In this document: one piece after another, positions 31,527 through 59,914 of the stretch | Position numbering within the stretch: the first letter of the stretch is position 1 | How the letters are laid out: the number at the start of each line of letters is the position of its first letter | Virus record (IMG/VR): IMGVR_UViG_2974724611_000001 | Location: 12,650-76,649 of that record | Direction: 5' to 3' (one strand) | DNA length: 64,000 bases | Source of the DNA: Cinqassovirus ah1 | Taxonomy: Duplodnaviria > Heunggongvirae > Uroviricota > Caudoviricetes > Straboviridae | Program-made: the position numbers and the translations under genes | Notes under the pieces: generated by a model | The model's database searches: none | What the model was told of the DNA's origin: nothing | The model's input: the letters and a program-made list of their open reading frames with translations, nothing else

Positions 31527-32471
31527 TTACTGCATTTGTTTCAGGAACAGCGGAGCTTGACCGTTGCCCATCATAGTGAAGTTTGCAGGTACTTGACCGT
31601 TCCAACCGGTACCAGCTTTCTTCATTTCAACTTCTAGACGCTTCAACTCGATGATCTGAGGAGTCAGAGAAGATGCCAATTTGGCGTTACCAATCGCGGT
31701 TTGTTCAGCCATGTAACGATCTGCATCTGCTTTCTGTTTTACACCGTCAGCATAAGCTTTGGCTTGAACGAAAGTTTGGTAAGCAGCGGCTTCATACTTC
31801 GCTTTATCTGCGGCAGCTTGACCCTTAGCAGTTGCTTCGGTAGTCTGTGCAGCAGTGGTAGCGATTCGCAACTGGGATTTCTCAGCTTCTTCCTTCTGGA
31901 TTCGATCTTGAGTTTGCAGAATTTGATTCTGAATTCGCGGATCGAAAGTTACATCTTGTACCAGAACTTCTTGCAGAGTGATACCAGTGCCGGTCAGTGC
32001 TTCTTGCAGACGACGCTTGGTATTCTCTTGCATCGCGGTTACATTGAAGCTATCAGCCAGACCACGGGAGTCAGCAATTTTACGGCCTTCGTCTTTGATA
32101 ATGCTAGTCAGGAACTGAGACATTGCCTTATCAACAAACATTTCCATAGTACCGTAGTTCTTTTTGATGAACGGGGTCTTGGAGTTGTCTACACGATACA
32201 ACACGGTAACGTTGGCGGTACTGTTGAAACGGTCTTTAGTCGGGATCAGCAAGTTTTCTTTAACAAACTTGTTGTTCCGGGTATCGAAAGTATCAAATCC
32301 CATAAACGGGTTTACAAAGTGCAGACCTTCTTCCAGCGGACGATCTTGAACTTCGCCCATCAGAGTACCGACTTTGGTAGTACCGGCGTCAACGATAGTA
32401 AAGCAGTTGGAACCGATAACGATAGCTACCAGAGCAGCAACACCAGTAATACCCATTTTGAATTGATTCAT
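31527..32471 (-). CDS. SPFH/band-7 (prohibitin/HflC-like) membrane protein
   Basis: 314 aa. N-terminal TM (GVAALVAIVIGSNCF), then an SPFH-like core and an Ala/Gln/Lys-rich coiled coil. Confidence 0.7.
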   Translation of the reverse strand: MNQFKMGITGVAALVAIVIGSNCFTIVDAGTTKVGTLMGEVQDRPLEEGLHFVNPFMGFDTFDTRNNKFVKENLLIPTKDRFNSTANVTVLYRVDNSKTPFIKKNYGTMEMFVDKAMSQFLTSIIKDEGRKIADSRGLADSFNVTAMQENTKRRLQEALTGTGITLQEVLVQDVTFDPRIQNQILQTQDRIQKEEAEKSQLRIATTAAQTTEATAKGQAAADKAKYEAAAYQTFVQAKAYADGVKQKADADRYMAEQTAIGNAKLASSLTPQIIELKRLEVEMKKAGTGWNGQVPANFTMMGNGQAPLFLKQMQ

Positions 32472-40652: not shown

Positions 40653-41432
40653 TTAGAATGTTAGTAGGCTTTCGCGAACTTTGTTAATTTCTTCCGTAAG
40701 TGCTTTTGATTCTTTTTCATACTTGGCACGTTCGGATTGGAGCTTTGCAATTTCTTGATCCACATTTCGTTGCTTTTCTTCCAGTAGACGAATGCGATCA
40801 AACTTGGAGCCATAGTTCAGTTCGAGGAAACGATTCACTTGAATCAAGTATTGGCGTTTCATTTCGTTTTCGCTAACCGGAGGGCGAGCTGAGGTAATTG
40901 TTTGTTCTTGTTTCACAGTTTCTTCCTTTTTGAAGGGTTTCACCAGATCTGCGGCAACCAAAACTTTGTTTTCTTGCTTGAGATAAGGCATCATCGGCAG
41001 CGGCTTGAGAGTCTTTCTATCGGGAGACAAAAAGATCTTGGACTCGATTTGAACAACACCGTTAACGATCTCGGCATATCCCAGCTTAACAAGATTTGAT
41101 TCTGCCATATGAGAGATAGTTTTAGATCGGATTACCATACGAATACAAGCAAACGACGTAAACTGATTGATGTTTCTCATAACAGAAGCGGAGTCCCACA
41201 CTACCGATTCTCCACCAATAGCAATGTTAAACTTTTGTTTGACGTTATCGTCTTTGTCGAGTCGATCAGCTTTTCTCACATGACCCGCGGTATAATGATT
41301 ATACACGCGAATTGTTTTACCGTCAACGGTAACGTTTTTGAAAAAGATGTGATTCAGAATCGCCCGGCAAGCATTGTGTACCTTGATCTCCGCTTTCATC
41401 TTATTCCGATTAGATTTTACTTGACTACTCAT
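40653..41432 (-). CDS. Hypothetical protein, paralog A (N-terminal domain plus C-terminal coiled coil)
   Basis: 259 aa. Shares FxNVTVDGxT and overall architecture with the next gene. Confidence 0.5.
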   Translation of the reverse strand: MSSQVKSNRNKMKAEIKVHNACRAILNHIFFKNVTVDGKTIRVYNHYTAGHVRKADRLDKDDNVKQKFNIAIGGESVVWDSASVMRNINQFTSFACIRMVIRSKTISHMAESNLVKLGYAEIVNGVVQIESKIFLSPDRKTLKPLPMMPYLKQENKVLVAADLVKPFKKEETVKQEQTITSARPPVSENEMKRQYLIQVNRFLELNYGSKFDRIRLLEEKQRNVDQEIAKLQSERAKYEKESKALTEEINKVRESLLTF

Positions 41433-42310
41433 TACGCTTCCTTAAAGCTATATTTGTCTAGGATCTGAGTCATGATAGTGATTTTCGGTTGCAAAGTCAA
41501 CATCACTTCATGATATTCCGCGTCTGCTTGTTGTTGTTCAGCGATAGCCATGTCCAGTTGCGCTTGTGCTTGTGCTACCAGTTGTTTAGCAGTTTTCACA
41601 TTAACGGCTTTATTCGAGCGAACACGATCCAGCTTCTGGAGTTCAGCAAATCCTGGCAACACTTTTTCGAGGTCGATATCAAAAACATCTTGACGAACAT
41701 CTTCTTTCTTACTCATTTCGTCCAATGTTTTTGCGTTTTCTTTCCGAGTATCTTTGTACATGATATCGTGTCCAATAGACTTTTTATCGGTACGCGGTAG
41801 ATAATCTTCTCCAACTTTTGACTCAGGAACCGGAATAATGACGCGGCACTTGTATTCGAACGGGTCGCAATGCCACACGCGCATACCAGTTTCACCGTCT
41901 CGAAAACTCCAGTTTTCCATAGAGAAGTGTTTGCCGATTTTAGATTCGAGCAACTTTCTCGGAACTTCGCACTTGAAATAAAGCGCGATTTGGTTTGGAG
42001 AAATTACTCGATACTGCCAACCCGCAGTTTGTAGACCAGGCCACATTGCACCAAGCTTTTCGAACGGACGATATTTGCCGTCGTTGTTATTGTACATAGA
42101 CTTGGTAAACGCGGTATGAGATCCGAACATCCGAATGAATGCGGAACCAATGCGAACGAGATTTGTACTAGAGAACAAGTTACCCTCAAGGATTCGGGTA
42201 CGAGTTTGACCGTCCACAGTCACGTTTTCGCAGAACAGATTTTGTTCCATGCGGATAAGAAAGTTCTTGAATTTCTTATCTTTGAATACTAATTTACGAC
42301 CTTCTTTCAT
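41432..42310 (-). CDS. Hypothetical protein, paralog B
   Basis: 292 aa. FCENVTVDGQTRTRI matches FKNVTVDGKTIRVY in paralog A. Gln/Ala-rich C-terminal coiled coil. Confidence 0.5.
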   Translation of the reverse strand: MKEGRKLVFKDKKFKNFLIRMEQNLFCENVTVDGQTRTRILEGNLFSSTNLVRIGSAFIRMFGSHTAFTKSMYNNNDGKYRPFEKLGAMWPGLQTAGWQYRVISPNQIALYFKCEVPRKLLESKIGKHFSMENWSFRDGETGMRVWHCDPFEYKCRVIIPVPESKVGEDYLPRTDKKSIGHDIMYKDTRKENAKTLDEMSKKEDVRQDVFDIDLEKVLPGFAELQKLDRVRSNKAVNVKTAKQLVAQAQAQLDMAIAEQQQADAEYHEVMLTLQPKITIMTQILDKYSFKEA

Positions 42311-42537: not shown

Positions 42538-42600
42538 GGTGTATTCCTCGTTTCGTTTGATGTAGCTATATTATCATATCAATATTCTACGTCAAGCACT
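42537..42600 (-). promoter_or_regulatory. Promoter–leader cassette
   Basis: Minus strand: gaaaaGTGCTTGACgtagaatattgatatgaTAATATagctacatcaaacgaaacGAGGAATACACCATG. Confidence 0.4.
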
Positions 42601-43115
42601 TTTCTAGCGTGATCCACATTTTTTACACATCGGATTAGTTCACCAATCTTGTCTTTCTTGATAACAAGCGTAGTAAAGTCGCCGTCGCTATTCATATCAA
42701 AGATTATGTTTTGTTTTGAAGTTCTAACACCAAGCCGAGAGTTCTTGATCTTCATTCTGCCAACTTGTATGTTAGCTGATTTAAATCTGGACTCGGTAAC
42801 AATAGAATCAGAACGTTTCATGAAATTAACAAATCGATCATGATCCTCTCGCTTAGGCAACTGGAACCAAACTTTCTTATTGAAATTCTCAGTTACCTCC
42901 ATAACAGTCGTATGATCTTTGATATAAAAAGAGATTGTATAAAACTGATTTACACATACACCAGAACAAGCAACGACTTCCTTATTACCGGCGTTTAGTC
43001 TTGAATAGAACTCTTGGTCACTCACAATAGCAGCGTTGGCAGATGTTACTGCCAACGCGATTGCAAGATTACTCCAGAGATTCGTCGCATTCTTCATACA
43101 GAACGGATTCATCAC
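42579..43115 (-). CDS. Secreted/periplasmic protein (signal peptide)
   Basis: Signal peptide: MKNATNLWSNLAIALAVTSANA-AIV. Confidence 0.5.
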   Translation of the reverse strand: MMNPFCMKNATNLWSNLAIALAVTSANAAIVSDQEFYSRLNAGNKEVVACSGVCVNQFYTISFYIKDHTTVMEVTENFNKKVWFQLPKREDHDRFVNFMKRSDSIVTESRFKSANIQVGRMKIKNSRLGVRTSKQNIIFDMNSDGDFTTLVIKKDKIGELIRCVKNVDHARKVLDVEY

Positions 43116-43395
43116 AGATTACCTCGTCTTCATTGGTACCGTCTTCTACTTGATCCGCAGTGCTATTCTGCATAGCATTCATGAGCATCATAGTAGTTAC
43201 TACGTTAGAAGCAGTGTTGGTGTGAACGGCTGCATTGCTCACAGTAGCAGGACGAGACACCGGAGCACTAACAGGACGCGATACAGTCATCGGTCGGCTG
43301 ATAGTCATAGGACGACTCATACTAATAGCGGCATTAGCAAATTCAACAACACACAGGCCAGCAAACATCATAACAGCAATAACAGATTTTTTCAT
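43069..43395 (-). CDS. Secreted protein with SRP(M/V)T(I/V)S repeats
   Basis: Start at MKKSVIAVMMFAGL (signal peptide). Repeats SRPMTISRPMTVSRPVSAPVSRPATVS; acidic C-terminus. Confidence 0.5.
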   Translation of the reverse strand: MKKSVIAVMMFAGLCVVEFANAAISMSRPMTISRPMTVSRPVSAPVSRPATVSNAAVHTNTASNVVTTMMLMNAMQNSTADQVEDGTNEDEVICDESVLYEECDESLE

Positions 43396-43509
43396 TTGAA
43401 CCCCAGAAATATTACACACAAAAACATCATAAACATTTGAATAAACGTTTCCACTTTCTTAATTCTCTTGCCAGAATTCTAAGAAAGTGGGGACAATCCC
43501 CACCCGTTT

Positions 43510-43776
43510 TTAATCTACTTTTCTGATAACGTAATGATAGCCAAGCATTTTCAGTTTATTTTCGAAGTTGCACCCTTTCTTGAAATCACCGTCGATTGTG
43601 TGAATCGCGTTGTAACCAATAACATGTCCTACTTTAGAACGAATCGGCTCAATGGTCATGATTGCACCTGCCATAGACAGTTTGAAATCAGCGGTGATAT
43701 CGATGTAACGTGCAGTCGGAACAACAACAGTAAACACATATTTCATAACAATCTCCTCATCAGAAAGTGGAGTCAT
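43510..43776 (-). CDS. Hypothetical protein
   Basis: 88-aa ORF behind a cassette. Confidence 0.5.
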   Translation of the reverse strand: MTPLSDEEIVMKYVFTVVVPTARYIDITADFKLSMAGAIMTIEPIRSKVGHVIGYNAIHTIDGDFKKGCNFENKLKMLGYHYVIRKVD

Positions 43777-43830
43777 TATCTATGGATTACCAACAGCCGT
43801 CAACAACTTTTTATCGAAAATCCGAAACTT
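43774..43830 (-). promoter_or_regulatory. Early promoter–leader cassette
   Basis: Minus strand: aaagttGTTGACggctgttggtaatccaTAGATAatgactccactttctgatGAGGAGATTGTTATG. Confidence 0.4.
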
Positions 43831-44353
43831 TTGACTGATTCACGCTTTGATCTTGTTCTACCGCGGCATTCATCTGAGAGCAGCCTTGCAGCATCATATA
43901 AGGATTGGTATGCATTAGATTAGAACCAATCGCAACTCCTTCCTCGAATCCAGCTTGAACTTTAGCGGCATCATAGTTCGGATTCTTTTTCGCTTCTTCA
44001 ATCATTCGAGTTCGGAACACGTTGTAATAAGCATTGTTGCTCATACGCGCTTGGGCACACTTACTGGTAATTCCAAGACCGCGACCGATGTTATATGAGA
44101 ATGATTCGGCTTCTTGCTTGGCAATATTATCATCGATTCGCTTTTGATCTTCTACTGCCCAAGCTTTATACTCAGCTTCTTGTTTGTTGCGGATCTCGCG
44201 CTCTTGCAAATTGATAGCCAGTTGCTTGTCTTGCTCTTCCAATTGCTTGAGATAAACTACCTGTTGGTGTTGAGCGTCGATATCATACTGATCGGACGGC
44301 ATAGAAGCGCAACCAGTCAACATAAGTCCAGCGAGAATAATCAAACGTTTCAT
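43811..44353 (-). CDS. Lipoprotein
   Basis: Signal peptide plus lipobox: MKRLIILAGLMLTGC. Confidence 0.6.
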   Translation of the reverse strand: MKRLIILAGLMLTGCASMPSDQYDIDAQHQQVVYLKQLEEQDKQLAINLQEREIRNKQEAEYKAWAVEDQKRIDDNIAKQEAESFSYNIGRGLGITSKCAQARMSNNAYYNVFRTRMIEEAKKNPNYDAAKVQAGFEEGVAIGSNLMHTNPYMMLQGCSQMNAAVEQDQSVNQSKVSDFR

Positions 44354-44673
44354 TTTGCACCTACACAGTTAGCGAAACTACGAAAATTCACGTTATCAAG
44401 TTCTACCATAACGCGATCATTTTTCAACACAACATCTTGGCCGGATTTGCTTGCGATCTCTTCTTTACTCATTTCAAAGAATACATGAGTCGGATCAACC
44501 GGATTAAACGGGTCGGTACCATAATCAGTAACAGCTACACCAGATTTGGTGCCAACAGTTGCATACGAAATCAGGGTATGGCTTTCTTTGTCATGTTTAA
44601 CAAAAGTCTGGCACTCAATATGAGCAGCATTTACACTGATAGAAAACAAAGCAAGGATAATCAATTTTTTCAT
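44350..44673 (-). CDS. Secreted protein
   Basis: Start at MKKLIILALFSISVNA (signal peptide). Confidence 0.5.
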   Translation of the reverse strand: MKKLIILALFSISVNAAHIECQTFVKHDKESHTLISYATVGTKSGVAVTDYGTDPFNPVDPTHVFFEMSKEEIASKSGQDVVLKNDRVMVELDNVNFRSFANCVGAK

Positions 44674-44683
44674 TTTGTTTCGC

Positions 44684-44785
44684 GACCCACTAACGATAGC
44701 TCTAAGAATGCCCCCATTCACCTAGCACAAACAATTAATTTAAGTTAAAAATTAGTGTAAAGAAAAGAGCTACCGTTAGTGGGTC
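44684..44785. repeat. 20-bp imperfect inverted repeat with a 62-nt spacer (large stem-loop)
   Basis: gacccactaacgatagctct (44684-44703) versus agagctaccgttagtgggtc (44766-44785): 19 of 20 positions are complementary. The left arm sits 11 nt upstream of the 44673 start. Confidence 0.55.
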
Positions 44786-44798
44786 CCGTCTCCCACTG

Positions 44799-45332
44799 TT
44801 AGTTCAGATAAGTCGTTGCAGTTGATACGCAATCAGCAACCATGGAACTCATGTCTTTGATATCAACGGCATAGCCACCAATCAAAGATGTGTCGTCTTG
44901 AACACCGATATAAACTTCTTTGGTAGCGTATTTTTCGACGCTTGCGGTTACACCGTTGGAAGATTTGTATTCGTGCTGATAAAATTGATCGTCAACAAGT
45001 TCAGAAACATCACCAGCGGCAACGAGTTTGATTTGACGCGCAAACTCAACGGCAGTATCTTTGCCCATCGCAGAGAACATAGGCATAACTGCTTGTTGTC
45101 CTTCGAGCATATACCCGATCATAACAACAGTGTTTGATTTCAGATTCACGCCGATGCCGAGTTGTTCTGGACCAGCTTCTCCTTGAAAATCGATAGTACA
45201 AACGTTGGCACTATGTTTTGTTGATAGTTGTGCTTGAACTTCGTCCATAGTCAGTTGGGTGAAGTTTTCAGCGGGAGAGGCATTCGCTACACAAGAGAAG
45301 CCGAGAAGCATTGCAAGTAATGTCTTTTTCAT
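44799..45332 (-). CDS. Secreted protein
   Basis: Signal peptide: MKKTLLAMLLGFSCVANA-SP. Confidence 0.55.
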   Translation of the reverse strand: MKKTLLAMLLGFSCVANASPAENFTQLTMDEVQAQLSTKHSANVCTIDFQGEAGPEQLGIGVNLKSNTVVMIGYMLEGQQAVMPMFSAMGKDTAVEFARQIKLVAAGDVSELVDDQFYQHEYKSSNGVTASVEKYATKEVYIGVQDDTSLIGGYAVDIKDMSSMVADCVSTATTYLN

Positions 45333-46133: not shown

Positions 46134-46745
46134 TTATTTCCCAATATAAAAGTCAATTGCTTTATGCGGGTCAAAAAAGATTTTAACTCCGGCATCCGAT
46201 ACATCACATTCATTGCCGTTGTCAGTTCTTTTAAAATAATGCCGAGTTTCGGTATGATCGCAATACCAAGTCTTACCGTCGATCTCTCGCGTTTCTCTAG
46301 TATTGTTACTATACACTTTATGATCCCTAATTTCAATAGGCATCTGTCTGATTTCGTTATGATAGAAAACCGCATATTTGAGTTCTACCGTTGAATCCAT
46401 ACGAAGCAAAACAGATTCATACTTGGTCAACTCCATGTTATTGAGTCGATTCGCGTATGCCATTGCCTCATGTTCGGTGTTAAACACACGATTGACATTA
46501 TACGGCTCATAATGAGCACCTTCCATGGTGATATTAAAATCACCGTAGAATATTTCTCGAAAGCTACCGGTTCCTGTTAGCTGAATTGTAGTCTTTCTGT
46601 CATGAATCGCAACAACTTTACCAGATACACACGACGCTACCAATCGATCATTCTTTTTCACAACAGAAATGGCATACAATGTCTTTTCATATTGGATTTG
46701 TGATTTCTTTGTAACTAACATGATGATTCCTCTTGTTTTTGACAA
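46134..46745 (-). CDS. Hypothetical protein
   Basis: 203-aa ORF. Confidence 0.5.
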   Translation of the reverse strand: MSKTRGIIMLVTKKSQIQYEKTLYAISVVKKNDRLVASCVSGKVVAIHDRKTTIQLTGTGSFREIFYGDFNITMEGAHYEPYNVNRVFNTEHEAMAYANRLNNMELTKYESVLLRMDSTVELKYAVFYHNEIRQMPIEIRDHKVYSNNTRETREIDGKTWYCDHTETRHYFKRTDNGNECDVSDAGVKIFFDPHKAIDFYIGK

Positions 46746-46777: not shown

Positions 46778-47416
46778 TTAGATCAAATCAAACACGCTTA
46801 CAACTTTCTTGGCAAACACCGGAACTTCGGTAACACGGAGAGTTTTCATGATTTCACGAATGGTCTCTTCGGTAGCTGGTACCATTTTGCCGTTGTTTTC
46901 AACGTAGAACTCAGAAGCGTCGAAACCAGACGCTTGTGCGATCTTGGTTTCAATTTTGATATGTTCTACCGGTTTAACAGCGACCGGAGCAACGACTTCC
47001 ATTTTCACATTAGCCATAGGGAATTCATGACCGATATATGGGAAGCTCTTAGAGAACTCGATTGCGCCACCAGTGAAATTCTCTACTTTCGGAGTAAACG
47101 CACCACTACGAATGATATCCAGATTCATGACTTCGGTAATCTGAGTTTCACCCAAGTTGTTCAGAGTCTTTGACACAATGTAGCCAACAGAAACAGAAGA
47201 GTTCGGGCGACGAATAGCAAGACGGCGATAGCAGCCAGTTGAATCCATATACCACATCGCACCGATAGTATAAGTAGGATATACTTTGTCGATAGTGCCA
47301 GGAGTGTTACCTTTGGATTTACCCAGACCGGTAACTTTACCAAACACGCCAGCAAACTTACCAGCAGTTACCATAACCAGAGTGCCAACTTTGTGTTTGT
47401 GATTTACGTTTTGCAT
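46778..47416 (-). CDS. Hypothetical protein with a KOW-like N-terminus
   Basis: Start at MQNVNHKHKVGTLVMVTAGKFAGVFGKV behind a cassette. Confidence 0.5.
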   Translation of the reverse strand: MQNVNHKHKVGTLVMVTAGKFAGVFGKVTGLGKSKGNTPGTIDKVYPTYTIGAMWYMDSTGCYRRLAIRRPNSSVSVGYIVSKTLNNLGETQITEVMNLDIIRSGAFTPKVENFTGGAIEFSKSFPYIGHEFPMANVKMEVVAPVAVKPVEHIKIETKIAQASGFDASEFYVENNGKMVPATEETIREIMKTLRVTEVPVFAKKVVSVFDLI

Positions 47417-56865: not shown

Positions 56866-57543
56866 TCAGAATACCAGTGCGATACCAGCAACAGCAGAGT
56901 TATCATAGCCAACACCGGTAGTTACAGTGTGGCGCAGTTTAACATAGGGCTGGAACAGCTCGCCAGTCAGAGTCATAGCGATTTCGTGTTCATTGGAAGT
57001 CGGAAGACCCAGAGAGAAATCGGTACGTTCATGTTGGGTTTTACGGGTAAAGTTATATCCTACAGTCATTTCGGGGTGAATTTCATAACTCACACCAGCT
57101 TTGATCTTGCTATAGTCTTGACCTTCGTTCATGAAGCTATAACCAGCGCCAGCGTAGGAATACAGTTTGGCGAACGGCATGTATTCAACGATGCCCTGGA
57201 AGTAAGTTTCATGATCGGTATTCACATCACCTTCATAGATGCCGTATTCAGCACTAGGAACAAAGGTAAAATCATCAGAGATCTGAATTGTCTTGCCCAG
57301 AGTACCGGCAGTGTGCTTGGTAGTGTCGTGTTTGACTTCCAGGAAGTAGGAGTCAGGCAGAGCAACGGAAGCACCGTATTCAGAAACATCGGTAGAGACG
57401 TTACGCTCTACATAGATCTTTTCAAATTGAACTTGAGCGGCAGCTTCGGTCAGATCGGAAGCTTGTGCTTGGGTACAGCCAAAAGATGCAGCAGCTACGG
57501 CCAAGCCAATGATTACACTGTGAATAAAGTTTTTGGACATCAA
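56866..57543 (-). CDS. Outer-membrane beta-barrel protein (porin/OmpW/KdgM-like)
   Basis: Signal peptide MSKNFIHSVIIGLAVAAASFGCTQAQA. Alternating amphipathic beta-strands. C-terminal aromatic residue (..GIALVF). Confidence 0.55.
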   Translation of the reverse strand: MMSKNFIHSVIIGLAVAAASFGCTQAQASDLTEAAAQVQFEKIYVERNVSTDVSEYGASVALPDSYFLEVKHDTTKHTAGTLGKTIQISDDFTFVPSAEYGIYEGDVNTDHETYFQGIVEYMPFAKLYSYAGAGYSFMNEGQDYSKIKAGVSYEIHPEMTVGYNFTRKTQHERTDFSLGLPTSNEHEIAMTLTGELFQPYVKLRHTVTTGVGYDNSAVAGIALVF

Positions 57544-59232: not shown

Positions 59233-59588
59233 TCTGTTTCCTTAAAGAAATCAACACTCTTTTTAATTACACTTGAGCTTTCTTTGTAGTAATCTACCAC
59301 AAGTTCTTCGTCTCGTCCGAGTGCAAGCATGAATCGTTTTGCTTGACTAACTGACATTGGTCCAGTAGTTCTTCCCCAGCCAAGAAAAACGAAATCTTTC
59401 TCTTGCTCATGAATTTGAATCCCATATTTGAGCATATTCTTATTCACAACGGGGAGCTTATTCAAAAATGAATCGCGATCCAGATAGTTCATAATCTTAA
59501 CATAGATAATACGACACACGATTGAAGACAAAAACAAAACCAAAATAAAAATCGCGTATTCTTTGGCACCAATTTCGATAATGTTCAT
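59229..59588 (-). CDS. Membrane-anchored protein (N-terminal TM)
   Basis: 119 aa. TM helix YAIFILVLFLSSIVCRIIYV. 4-nt overlap with the nucleotidyltransferase gene. Confidence 0.5.
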   Translation of the reverse strand: MNIIEIGAKEYAIFILVLFLSSIVCRIIYVKIMNYLDRDSFLNKLPVVNKNMLKYGIQIHEQEKDFVFLGWGRTTGPMSVSQAKRFMLALGRDEELVVDYYKESSSVIKKSVDFFKETE

Positions 59589-59914
59589 TATTGCATTGCC
59601 TTCTGTTGATAGAGTTCAGCCAAGTTTTTGTTCAGTCGCTCGATTGCTTGTTCCAAAGTCTCAGCATTCGGATCATAGTTATCGGCAGTTGAATCGTAAT
59701 GTGATTTTGATTTACCATGAGAAACATCCCAATGAGTGGAAGTAGTCTCAGGACAACGAGTCACATACAGATTTTGATCTGATTTAGACCGTAGATAAAA
59801 CACTTTACACCCGGCCAGACCACTAGGCATTTGATATGCGTTCGTGGTCTCAGTTGTTACAGTATCGCATCCAATCAGAGCGAATGCAAGAGTAATTACG
59901 GCAAACTTTTTCAT
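59588..59914 (-). CDS. Lipoprotein
   Basis: MKKFAVITLAFALIGC (lipobox). Confidence 0.55.
   Translation of the reverse strand: MKKFAVITLAFALIGCDTVTTETTNAYQMPSGLAGCKVFYLRSKSDQNLYVTRCPETTSTHWDVSHGKSKSHYDSTADNYDPNAETLEQAIERLNKNLAELYQQKAMQ

Follow-up and report, generated by a model that had tools for sequence, protein, structure and literature searches.

A probably modular block of genes for predicted exported proteins, with a structured RNA leader, in the early arm of Aeromonas phage Ah1

We analysed a window of 64,000 nucleotides (nt) from the genome of the Aeromonas phage Ah1 (Straboviridae, Cinqassovirus; record NC_055733.1, with window coordinates equal to the record coordinates minus 12649), and in particular the six annotated genes, gp084 to gp089, that occupy positions 42579-45332 of its minus strand. 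Every annotated gene of the window lies on that strand, and the window corresponds to the early/DNA-metabolism arm of T4-type phages, in which uvsX, gene 43, regA, genes 62/44/45, 46/47 and 55 and the nrd genes are followed by many small hypothetical genes. Over the 4 kb surrounding the block, the sequence and this record agree at 100% identity. Five of the six products carry an N-terminal export signal, four of the Sec/signal-peptidase-I type and one a lipobox, and gp086 carries none. A sequence-only reading of this DNA had described four consecutive secreted proteins and lipoproteins here. The run of export signals stands, and the motifs quoted for it (LTGC, ANA|SP and VNA|AH, the bar marking the cleavage site) are all in place on the minus strand, but the number does not hold, since gp084 is a fifth signal-bearing product and gp086 interrupts the series.

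All features of the block are on the minus strand, and in the direction of transcription the first gene is gp089 (KNT77_gp089, 44799-45332). It encodes 177 amino acids (aa), with a Sec signal peptide at residues 1-18 (ANA|SP), a mature part of 159 aa with an isoelectric point (pI) of 4.3, and invariant cysteines at positions 45 and 168. The product of gp088 (44350-44673; 107 aa) has a Sec signal peptide at residues 1-16 (VNA|AH) and a mature part of 91 aa, in which Cys21 and Cys103, both invariant, lie close to either end; the gene is preceded by a structured RNA leader (44681-44794), recognised by fold prediction and conservation. The gene gp087 (43811-44353; 180 aa) encodes the lipoprotein, with the lipobox LTGC, Cys15, Ala at +2, and invariant Cys99 and Cys158. 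The small basic protein of gp086 (43510-43746; 78 aa, pI 9.3) has one cysteine, and its gene is flanked on the 5' side by an early-promoter-like site (43775-43803), TTGACG-17-GATAAT with AAAAGTTG before it, and directly on the 3' side by an intrinsic-terminator-like hairpin (43487-43503), GTGGGGA-TTG-TCCCCAC followed by TTTCTT. The two last genes are gp085 (43069-43395; 108 aa), with a Sec signal peptide at residues 1-22 (ANA|AI), an acidic mature part of 86 aa (pI 4.2) and invariant Cys94 and Cys103, and gp084 (42579-43112; 177 aa), with a signal peptide at residues 1-27 (ANA|AI), a basic mature part of 150 aa (pI 9.3) and invariant Cys49 and Cys162. A further sigma70/T4-early-like promoter is predicted from the sequence at 42595-42568.

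The export signals were assigned by a rule-based scan. A Sec signal peptide was defined by a positive n-region, an h-region of 7-15 residues and small residues at -3 and -1 (AXA) about 15-35 residues from the start, and a lipobox by [LVI][ASTVI][GAS]C closing the h-region. The n-, h- and c-regions of gp084, gp085, gp088 and gp089 are classic, with the cleavage regions ...TSANA|AIV, ...EFANA|AIS, ...ISVNA|AHIEC and ...CVANA|SPAEN, and the lipoprotein signal of gp087 reads MKRLIILAGLMLTG|C, with lipidation predicted. No hydrophobic segment past the signal peptide was found by the scan in any of these proteins. In Ah1 gp084 the signal is weak (a single Lys, a short h-region), while that of its phiAS5 orthologue is far clearer (KSAKKPKTWIIASLLSFSVNA|EV, with the textbook form KSAKKPK-TWIIASLLSFSV-NA|E). 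The type of signal is retained and its sequence has diverged across Cinqassovirus (Ah1, Aeh1, avDM12-TAAL), Angelvirus (PX29, AsFcp_1/2/4) and Chrysonvirus (phiAS5, phiWae14); the lipobox of gp087 becomes LGGC in Angelvirus and LSGC in phiAS5, and the signal of gp085 drifts from VIAVMMFAGLCVVEFANA through ILAIALFSMIGSANA to FAFAGLILIAGMSAAQA.

The cleavage sites from our scan match those published for phage Aeh1, where SignalP 3.0 placed signal peptides at residues 1-27, 1-20, 1-17, 1-16 and 1-18 of ORF091c, 092c, 094c, 095c and 096c (Nolan et al. 2006, PMC1524935, Additional file 2). The verification by dedicated tools that the sequence-only reading had proposed is therefore positive for the Aeh1 orthologues of all five proteins, and these orthologue predictions have been in a supplementary table since 2006 (PMC1524935). 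The gp086 orthologue, ORF093c, is not in the SignalP/TMHMM list of Aeh1, and TMHMM also called the N-termini of the gp084 and gp085 orthologues transmembrane, at residues 12-30 and 5-25 (PMC1524935). Ah1 gp087 is named 'Lipoprotein' in UniProt/UniRef. Scans of the five proteins against Pfam, NCBIfam and PADLOC gave nothing informative, and the sub-threshold matches fall mostly in the N-terminal signal region: those of gp087 in NCBIfam are mostly to lipoprotein families (Lpp/OprI, Sbal_3080, IglE, an immunity lipoprotein of the type VI secretion system, RcsF), all from its first residues, and that of gp088 is to the first 22 residues of StxB. In two genomes the annotated start of the gp084 orthologue lies downstream, so that the signal peptide is lost: PX29 (L005 2943-3425) and phiAS5 (ORF0222, L010 908-1219).

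In the seven phages compared, each mature exported protein has exactly two invariant cysteines, and gp086 has a single one. Paired cysteines are expected of periplasmic proteins oxidised by DsbA, and the five proteins are predicted to be disulfide-bonded in the periplasm. That these are real genes under purifying selection is supported by the ratio of non-synonymous to synonymous substitution rates (dN/dS), which ranges from 0.05 to 0.39 in pairwise comparisons with Aeh1, AsFcp_4 and phiAS5, dS often exceeding 1. The exported proteins diverge faster than the cytoplasmic neighbour gp091, being 37-56% identical to their phiAS5 counterparts against 85% for gp091. Judged by these sequence features, export of all five products by the host Sec pathway is very probable.

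The concentration of export signals at this locus exceeds chance: five of the seven convincing signals among the 107 genes of the window sit in six consecutive genes (permutation P = 1.5e-4). Genome-wide, the published list for Aeh1 (39 of about 352 open reading frames, ORFs) also shows clustering, with P = 0.019, and contains similar runs at ORF124c-127c and 283c-288c. The run is thus real but not unique, a recurrent feature of these genomes. Elsewhere in the window, gp115 (56866-57540) is an exported protein whose signal peptide ends in AQA|SDL, and gp120 (59588-59914) is a lipoprotein (LIGC, Cys16, Asp at +2); neither has a Pfam match. The product of gp061 (31527-32471), annotated as 'lipoprotein', belongs to the SPFH/Band 7 family (Pfam E 1.4e-21) and has an N-terminal membrane anchor; the rule-based scan found no lipobox in it.

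The junctions and transcription signals divide the block. The stop codon of gp088 overlaps the start of gp087 (ATGA), and the last 44 nt of gp085 are shared with gp084, whose Shine-Dalgarno (SD) sequence, GAGGT, lies inside gp085; because both gene pairs overlap in this manner, translational coupling of gp088 with gp087 and of gp085 with gp084 is suggested. The T4-early-like promoter 5' of gp086 also reads AAAAGTTGTTGACG-17-GATAAT. The motif AAAAGTTGTTGAC, present at 43810 and at four more sites of the window (31145, 32884, 33243 and 57672, minus strand), is likely the -35/UP consensus of early promoters. In Aeh1, early promoters were predicted before the orthologues of gp086 (Pe:67873), gp083 (Pe:66670) and gp093 (Pe:71455), and TransTerm placed a terminator at 67547-67563, between ORF093c and ORF092c, that is, between the gp086 and gp085 orthologues (PMC1524935). 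The late-promoter motif TATAAATA is absent from both strands of the window, where 2.5 occurrences would be expected by chance. Given this layout of promoters and terminator, gp089, gp088 and gp087 would close a long early unit beginning at gp093, gp086 would form a transcription unit with its own promoter and terminator, and gp085/gp084 lie past a terminator. The product of gp086 is a separate and unrelated small cytoplasmic protein.

The phyletic distributions of the genes differ as well. With tblastn, gp084, gp087, gp088 and gp089 are confined to the same 13 phage records of three genera. Only members of this clade were found when 5.8 billion proteins were searched with gp087, gp089 and the gp084 profile, and a hidden Markov model (HMM) search of 1.84 billion cluster representatives with gp087 returned only phage orthologues, apart from one match to a repeat-rich, apparently Big_2-like protein that we judged spurious. 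Scans of IMG/VR, JGI metagenomes and GTDB with the gp089 and gp088 profiles and the core of the RNA leader recovered only Aeh1, PX29 and phiAS5. For gp085, a homologue with 43% identity occurs in the unclassified straboviral Aeromonas phage Ahp1_CNU-2021 (L028 3001-3869), and directly 3' of it, with a one-base overlap, lies a homologue of gp084 (hhalign probability 98.3%, E 1.3e-14, both cysteines aligned); homologues of gp087, gp088 and gp089 were not detectable in that phage. The T7-like Aeromonas phages PZL-Ah8 (L027 3492-3869) and PZL-Ah152 have a lone gp085-like gene just upstream of the gene for the single-stranded DNA-binding protein (hhalign 94.6%, E 6.6e-8), whose product shares the architecture of gp085: a signal peptide, S/T-R-P repeats and a C-terminal pair of cysteines. 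With the pair found again in a fourth lineage of straboviral phages, and a solitary gp085-like gene in T7-like podophages, gp085 and gp084 form a pair with a history of their own. Every homologue found is in an Aeromonas phage, and all five families are restricted to such phages; this distribution suggests that gp085-like proteins move between unrelated phages of one host genus, as in the horizontal sharing of an Aeromonas-specific envelope factor. Among the records compared, avDM12-TAAL (OP380604.1) has the record taxonomy Chrysonvirus, yet it is 97.8% identical to Ah1 in this region and far from phiAS5, which points to a mislabelled taxonomy.

The mature proteins are mutually unrelated in family comparisons with hhalign. 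Paralogy among the five was rejected, the alignments being confined to the signal peptides. In Angelvirus, an extra cassette with a Dam-like (DPPY) adenine methyltransferase gene is inserted between the orthologues of gp086 and gp087, showing a point of plasticity midway along the run; the methyltransferase is intact in AsFcp_2 (L009 2534-4941), where the cassette includes two further ORFs of 350 and 135 aa, and truncated in PX29 (L005 4150-4440) and AsFcp_4 (L006 4170-4643). Because the whole region from gp081 to gp093 is syntenic in the three genera, the co-occurrence of the six genes there says little. The multi-component system that the sequence-only reading had proposed for the cluster is contradicted by the promoter and terminator around gp086, by the unrelated mature proteins and by their differing distributions, and a modular organisation of the block is the probable arrangement.

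The best-conserved DNA of the locus is the 125-nt spacer between gp089 and gp088. Over its whole length it is 94% identical to that of AsFcp_4 and 83% to that of phiAS5 (97% and 89% in the core aligned by BLAST), whereas the flanking coding DNA, highly conserved gp091 included, is 53-78% identical. All 13 related records have one copy of the leader per genome (also at phiAS5 L010 3007-3124 and at L002 6545-6666); scans of genomes and metagenomes did not find the RNA core beyond the clade, and the window has no second copy. The RNA is predicted to fold into a three-way junction of about 114 nt with an intervening structure of 108 nt, in which a 22-bp helix P1 (approximately 44788-44767 paired with 44702-44681) encloses P2, an AU-rich hairpin, and P3, the hairpin GAAUG-GGGG-CAUUC. 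The minimum free energy of the sense strand is -48.8 kcal/mol (z = -5.65), and that of the antisense strand, at -40.7, is 8 kcal/mol weaker. Each of the six aligned sequences, of which five are distinct, is predicted to form the 22-bp P1, and the loops are near-invariant. Between Ah1 and phiAS5, one pair of P1 changes from A-U to G-C, which is the only compensatory pair, another changes from G-U to A-U, and two pairs are lost in phiAS5.

The position of this structure relative to the start codon of gp088 would suit a role in translation initiation. Alone among the genes of the run, gp088 has no SD sequence near its AUG (44673), which stands 7-8 nt 3' of P1, 7 nt in Ah1, with no SD within those nucleotides. 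Directly 5' of P1 is an invariant GGAG/GAGG, which in Ah1 is an SD-like GGAG at 44793-44790. The sequence thus has the features of a split SD, in which the folding of P1 would set the spacing between SD and AUG at about 8 nt. In T4, structures of this kind shorten the spacing from 22 to 5 nt in gene 38 and from 27 to 11 nt in gene 25 (reviewed in PMC3014915). The likeness to these genes lies in the distal GGAG and in the stable intervening structure that would shorten the spacing; the difference is that the insert of gp088 is not a small hairpin but a 108-nt three-way junction with near-invariant loops. Because this insert is far larger and more conserved than those of genes 38 and 25, and exceeds the flanking genes in conservation, a binding or processing function of the leader beyond that of a spacer is suggested. 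A bolder proposal, which we consider unlikely, is that the leader is a previously undescribed cis-regulatory RNA, a switch responsive to a ligand or protein or a processing signal, that gates the synthesis of gp088 and gp087 as P1, and with it the juxtaposition of distant SD and start codon, forms or breaks. If so, its near-invariance would reflect a specific binding partner and not the spacer role, and the infected cell would have to be in a particular state, superinfection or envelope stress for example, for the exported products of gp088 and gp087 to be made. GGAG is also the target motif of RegB in T4 (PMC3014915); regB was not noticed in the annotation tables of Ah1, although no search was aimed at it.

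Several other identities were considered for the leader. The PeSL cassettes in the hyperplastic regions of T4-like phages occur in multiple copies, each joining an early promoter close to the consensus to a short stem-loop (PMC2839356, PMC4122927). Like them, the leader is an intergenic stem-loop in a hyperplastic early region, beside ORFan genes, but it differs in its much larger structure, in having no convincing promoter and in being single-copy. A PeSL or other repeat was rejected on the single copy in the window and in each of the 13 genomes and on the lack of a predicted early promoter. No Rfam family matched at E <= 1 in 4.5 kb, and the element alone gave only generic microRNA-hairpin models at 12-22 bits, against gathering thresholds of 69-88; transfer RNA and transfer-messenger RNA were rejected, with no match. 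A hidden coding extension of gp088 was rejected too: one is in frame upstream in Ah1, but an extra base in PX29 and AsFcp_4 puts the conserved sequence out of frame with the start of gp088; the gp088 orthologues of PX29 (L005 5081-5428), AsFcp_2 and AsFcp_4 (L006 5608-5982) are misannotated as extending upstream into the RNA element. A resemblance of part of the RNA loop to the RegA motif from in vitro selection (SELEX) was dropped, as the bases vary between Aeh1/phiAS5 and Ah1.

Among the proteins, gp087 is the one with a structure model of moderate confidence, obtained with AlphaFold2 (AF2; predicted local distance difference test, pLDDT, 77) and in agreement with an independent BFVD model (template-modelling score, TM, 0.85). 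It consists of a predicted 83-residue helix (20-102, about 12 nm) followed by three helices (107-173), with one invariant Cys at the end of the long helix and the other in the last helix, and an invariant C-terminal KVSDF. From its +2 residue (Ala/Thr) and the E. coli Lol rule, gp087 would be sorted to the outer membrane. In BFVD, the only significant match of the model is its own UniProt entry. For gp089, AF2 gave a model too poor for use (pLDDT 51), in which the pattern is alpha-beta4-alpha...beta2-alpha. The mature part of gp085 is mostly of low complexity; it has four SRP-x-T-(V/I) repeats as well as a segment rich in Met, and its acidic tail carries the invariant Cys-x8-Cys. The SRPxT(V/I)S repeats had been noticed in the sequence-only reading, and they are present (SRPMTI-SRPMTV-SRP(VSAPV)-SRPATV) at the peptide level only; a tandem repeat of the DNA itself was rejected, as Tandem Repeats Finder sees none. 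A phmmer search of PDB with four of the proteins gave nothing below E 0.5, and the PHROG matches are clade-specific families without known function.

The comparison with characterised envelope proteins of phages gives likenesses without detectable kinship. T4 Spackle (Sp, gene 61.3) is a periplasmic inhibitor of the gp5 tail lysozyme and a superinfection-exclusion factor (PMC7677548). As read from the T4 sequence, Sp resembles the cluster proteins in being a small early protein with a cleavable Sec signal peptide and two cysteines in its mature part, and Ah1 is annotated with a gp5-type tail lysozyme, the counterpart of its target. It differs in showing no sequence similarity (best E 1.4 in tblastn against the complete Ah1 genome, and blastp matches to the cluster in signal peptides only) and in position, as the cluster is not at the gene 61/41 site; there is also no Sp entry at E <= 10 among the PDB Foldseek matches of the gp087 model and the poor gp089 model. 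T4 Imm is likewise an early accessory gene that acts at the envelope. Its sequence is hydrophobic over most of its length and without an AXA cleavage site, which fits an integral membrane protein, whereas the five exported proteins of the cluster are hydrophobic only in a single N-terminal segment before the AXA site or lipobox, and tblastn of Imm against the complete Ah1 genome gave no match (best E 2.9). The corresponding syntenic slots are empty in Ah1, where gene 61.1 lies directly before gene 41 (the place of Sp) and uvsX directly before gene 43 (the place of Imm).

T5 Llp and the Cor proteins of phi80, N15 and T1 are small outer-membrane lipoproteins that block FhuA (PMC9586334). Like them, gp087 is a phage lipoprotein with a residue other than Asp at +2, and it matches PHROG 1119 (Cor) at E 1.8e-5. 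This match spans no more than the signal peptide and a few residues after it (residues 1-47), and gp087 is about three times larger (166 aa mature), with its 83-residue helix and helical head and no fold match in PDB or BFVD. Identification by PHROG as Cor or as an Rz-like spanin was rejected, the matches spanning the lipoprotein signal peptide (residues 1-47 or fewer). A spanin identity was also rejected because gp087 lacks a transmembrane domain at its C-terminus and no type-II membrane protein is encoded next to it; Ah1 is annotated with T4-type PseT.3/PseT.2 spanins at 173.6-174.3 kb, and the spanins of Aeh1, PX29 and phiAS5 were assigned to the same families (PMC6139136). Membership of the cluster proteins in the Sp, Imm, Llp/Cor and spanin families thus fails as far as sequences can tell, for Sp and Imm by homology. 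Homologues of T4 RI and of the T holin were undetectable by tblastn in the whole Ah1 genome, in which rI.1 (about 84.7 kb), rI.-1 (about 93.3 kb), rIII, rIIA/B and e are present elsewhere. The niche of Sp, Imm, RI and T in Ah1 appears to be without a recognisable homologue, which leaves the exclusion and lysis-inhibition readings open without supporting them.

We propose that the block consists of separate modules of exported accessory genes, set among early promoters, whose products would act on the envelope of the infected Aeromonas cell. The first module would be gp089, a soluble periplasmic protein. The second would combine the small periplasmic protein gp088 with the outer-membrane lipoprotein gp087, a helical stalk of about 12 nm with a helical head, and it is preceded by the structured leader that would bring the distant GGAG next to the start codon of gp088. 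The third would hold the acidic, proline-repeat protein gp085 and the basic gp084, whose genes overlap and have been kept together as a pair. Pairwise complexes within the modules are inferred, as is the biological role of the five proteins. The likeliest role is an early remodelling or protection of the envelope, whether by excluding secondary phages, by resisting lysis from without or by neutralising a periplasmic or outer-membrane component specific to Aeromonas. With such a role, the proteins would correspond to T4 Sp, T5 Llp or Cor in function and not by descent. We give this statement as a whole, with the protective role, a probability of about 40%. Protection or remodelling against secondary attack, taken as exclusion in the broad sense, is a tentative reading that we hold with somewhat less assurance. 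The export signals, conservation across genera, Cys pairs, purifying selection, modular organisation and restriction to Aeromonas phages are the elements supported by sequence. The interpretation in the sequence-only reading is therefore partly supported: action on the host envelope is the natural reading, since the products are early-region phage proteins that are exported, while superinfection exclusion or receptor masking by these proteins is only an analogy.

Several observations weigh against the proposal. None of the five proteins has a homology that links it with exclusion, receptors or lysozyme. Early expression of the cluster is deduced from its location and from promoter predictions, and no promoter is predicted directly 5' of gp085/gp084, past the terminator. 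The hyperplastic regions of these phages often contain series of genes whose products are predicted to be exported or membrane-bound, so co-location may say little about function. The +2 sorting rule applied to gp087 comes from E. coli. In Foldseek searches of PDB, gp087 had no significant match, the best being a PulS/GspS pilotin (E 2.4, TM 0.52 on the target), and the poor model of gp089 gave nothing significant, the best being PUR repeats with TM <0.5.

Other explanations were weighed against the same evidence. If the hydrophobic N-termini did not serve in export, the proteins would be cytoplasmic or merely anchored in the membrane. Such a view would agree with the TMHMM calls on the gp084 and gp085 orthologues and with the weak signal of Ah1 gp084; against this, SignalP 3.0 is positive for all five orthologues, the AXA and lipobox sites are kept in all genera, the invariant Cys pairs occur only in mature parts and further hydrophobic segments are lacking, which makes the idea hardly credible. 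A function in lysis timing, with one or more periplasmic proteins acting as an analogue of the T4 antiholin RI, or as another lysis-inhibition component, that senses superinfection and restrains the holin, seems distinctly improbable. T4 RI is periplasmic and expressed early. Judged from its sequence, it is small, begins with a signal-like segment and carries a pair of Cys in its C-terminal part, and the whole Ah1 genome, without a homologue of RI or of the T holin, still has rIIA, rIIB, rIII, rI.1 and rI.-1. The rI.1 and rI.-1 homologues, however, are far from the cluster, whose proteins have no similarity to RI and bear what look like cleavable AXA signal peptides instead of signal-anchor-release domains, and five unrelated proteins exceed the needs of lysis inhibition.

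Two further alternatives are somewhat less remote, although we regard each as doubtful. In one, the proteins serve counter-defence or host take-over in the envelope: they would inhibit machinery of the Aeromonas periplasm or outer membrane, such as nucleases, proteases, secretins or pili, or the envelope stress response, and would leave other phages unblocked. The restriction of all families to Aeromonas phages agrees with it, as does the presence of a gp085-like gene in Aeromonas phages as unrelated as the T4-like and the T7-like ones, a hint of a target specific to the host. The head of gp087 has its weak, non-significant resemblance to pilotins, which are secretin-binding outer-membrane lipoproteins, but that match is far from significance, helical bundles match by chance, and none of the five proteins is matched in PADLOC, Pfam or NCBIfam. 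In the other, the block is a set of unrelated ORFans gathered by a hyperplastic early region, with no theme beyond export. Mutually unrelated mature proteins, separate transcription signals, different phyletic distributions, the methyltransferase cassette inserted in the middle of the run in Angelvirus and the several other runs of signal-peptide ORFs in Aeh1 would all follow from such gathering. What speaks for more than this is the clustering of export signals beyond chance, the order and content kept across three genera with largely saturated synonymous sites, and the two gene pairs whose overlaps suggest translational coupling.

Exported early proteins are a means by which T-even and T5-like phages control the cell surface, and to our knowledge only a handful of them are understood (Sp, Imm, Llp, Cor and RI), all from coliphages. 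The five proteins described here are new families among the exported early accessory proteins of phages, well defined and arranged as one single gene and two gene pairs. As they are restricted to Aeromonas phages and belong to a phage group without detectable Sp, Imm, RI or T, they are concrete candidates for analogous functions in a pathogen of aquaculture. Phage cocktails against it are in development, and mutual exclusion of their members would matter there. The RNA leader, if regulatory, would show the split-SD principle at work in a large structured element and not only in small hairpins.

Some neighbouring genes of the block also gave matches. The product of gp092 (46134-46721) has a Phage_g100-like domain (E 1.2e-10), and that of gp093 (46778-47416) has a sub-threshold N-terminal match to KOW (E 0.001, 19.3 bits against a cut-off of 22.3 bits). 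On the other side, gp081 and gp082 (40653-42310) both carry the short motif NVTVDG at the N-terminus; they are perhaps distantly paralogous, with an E value of only 0.027.

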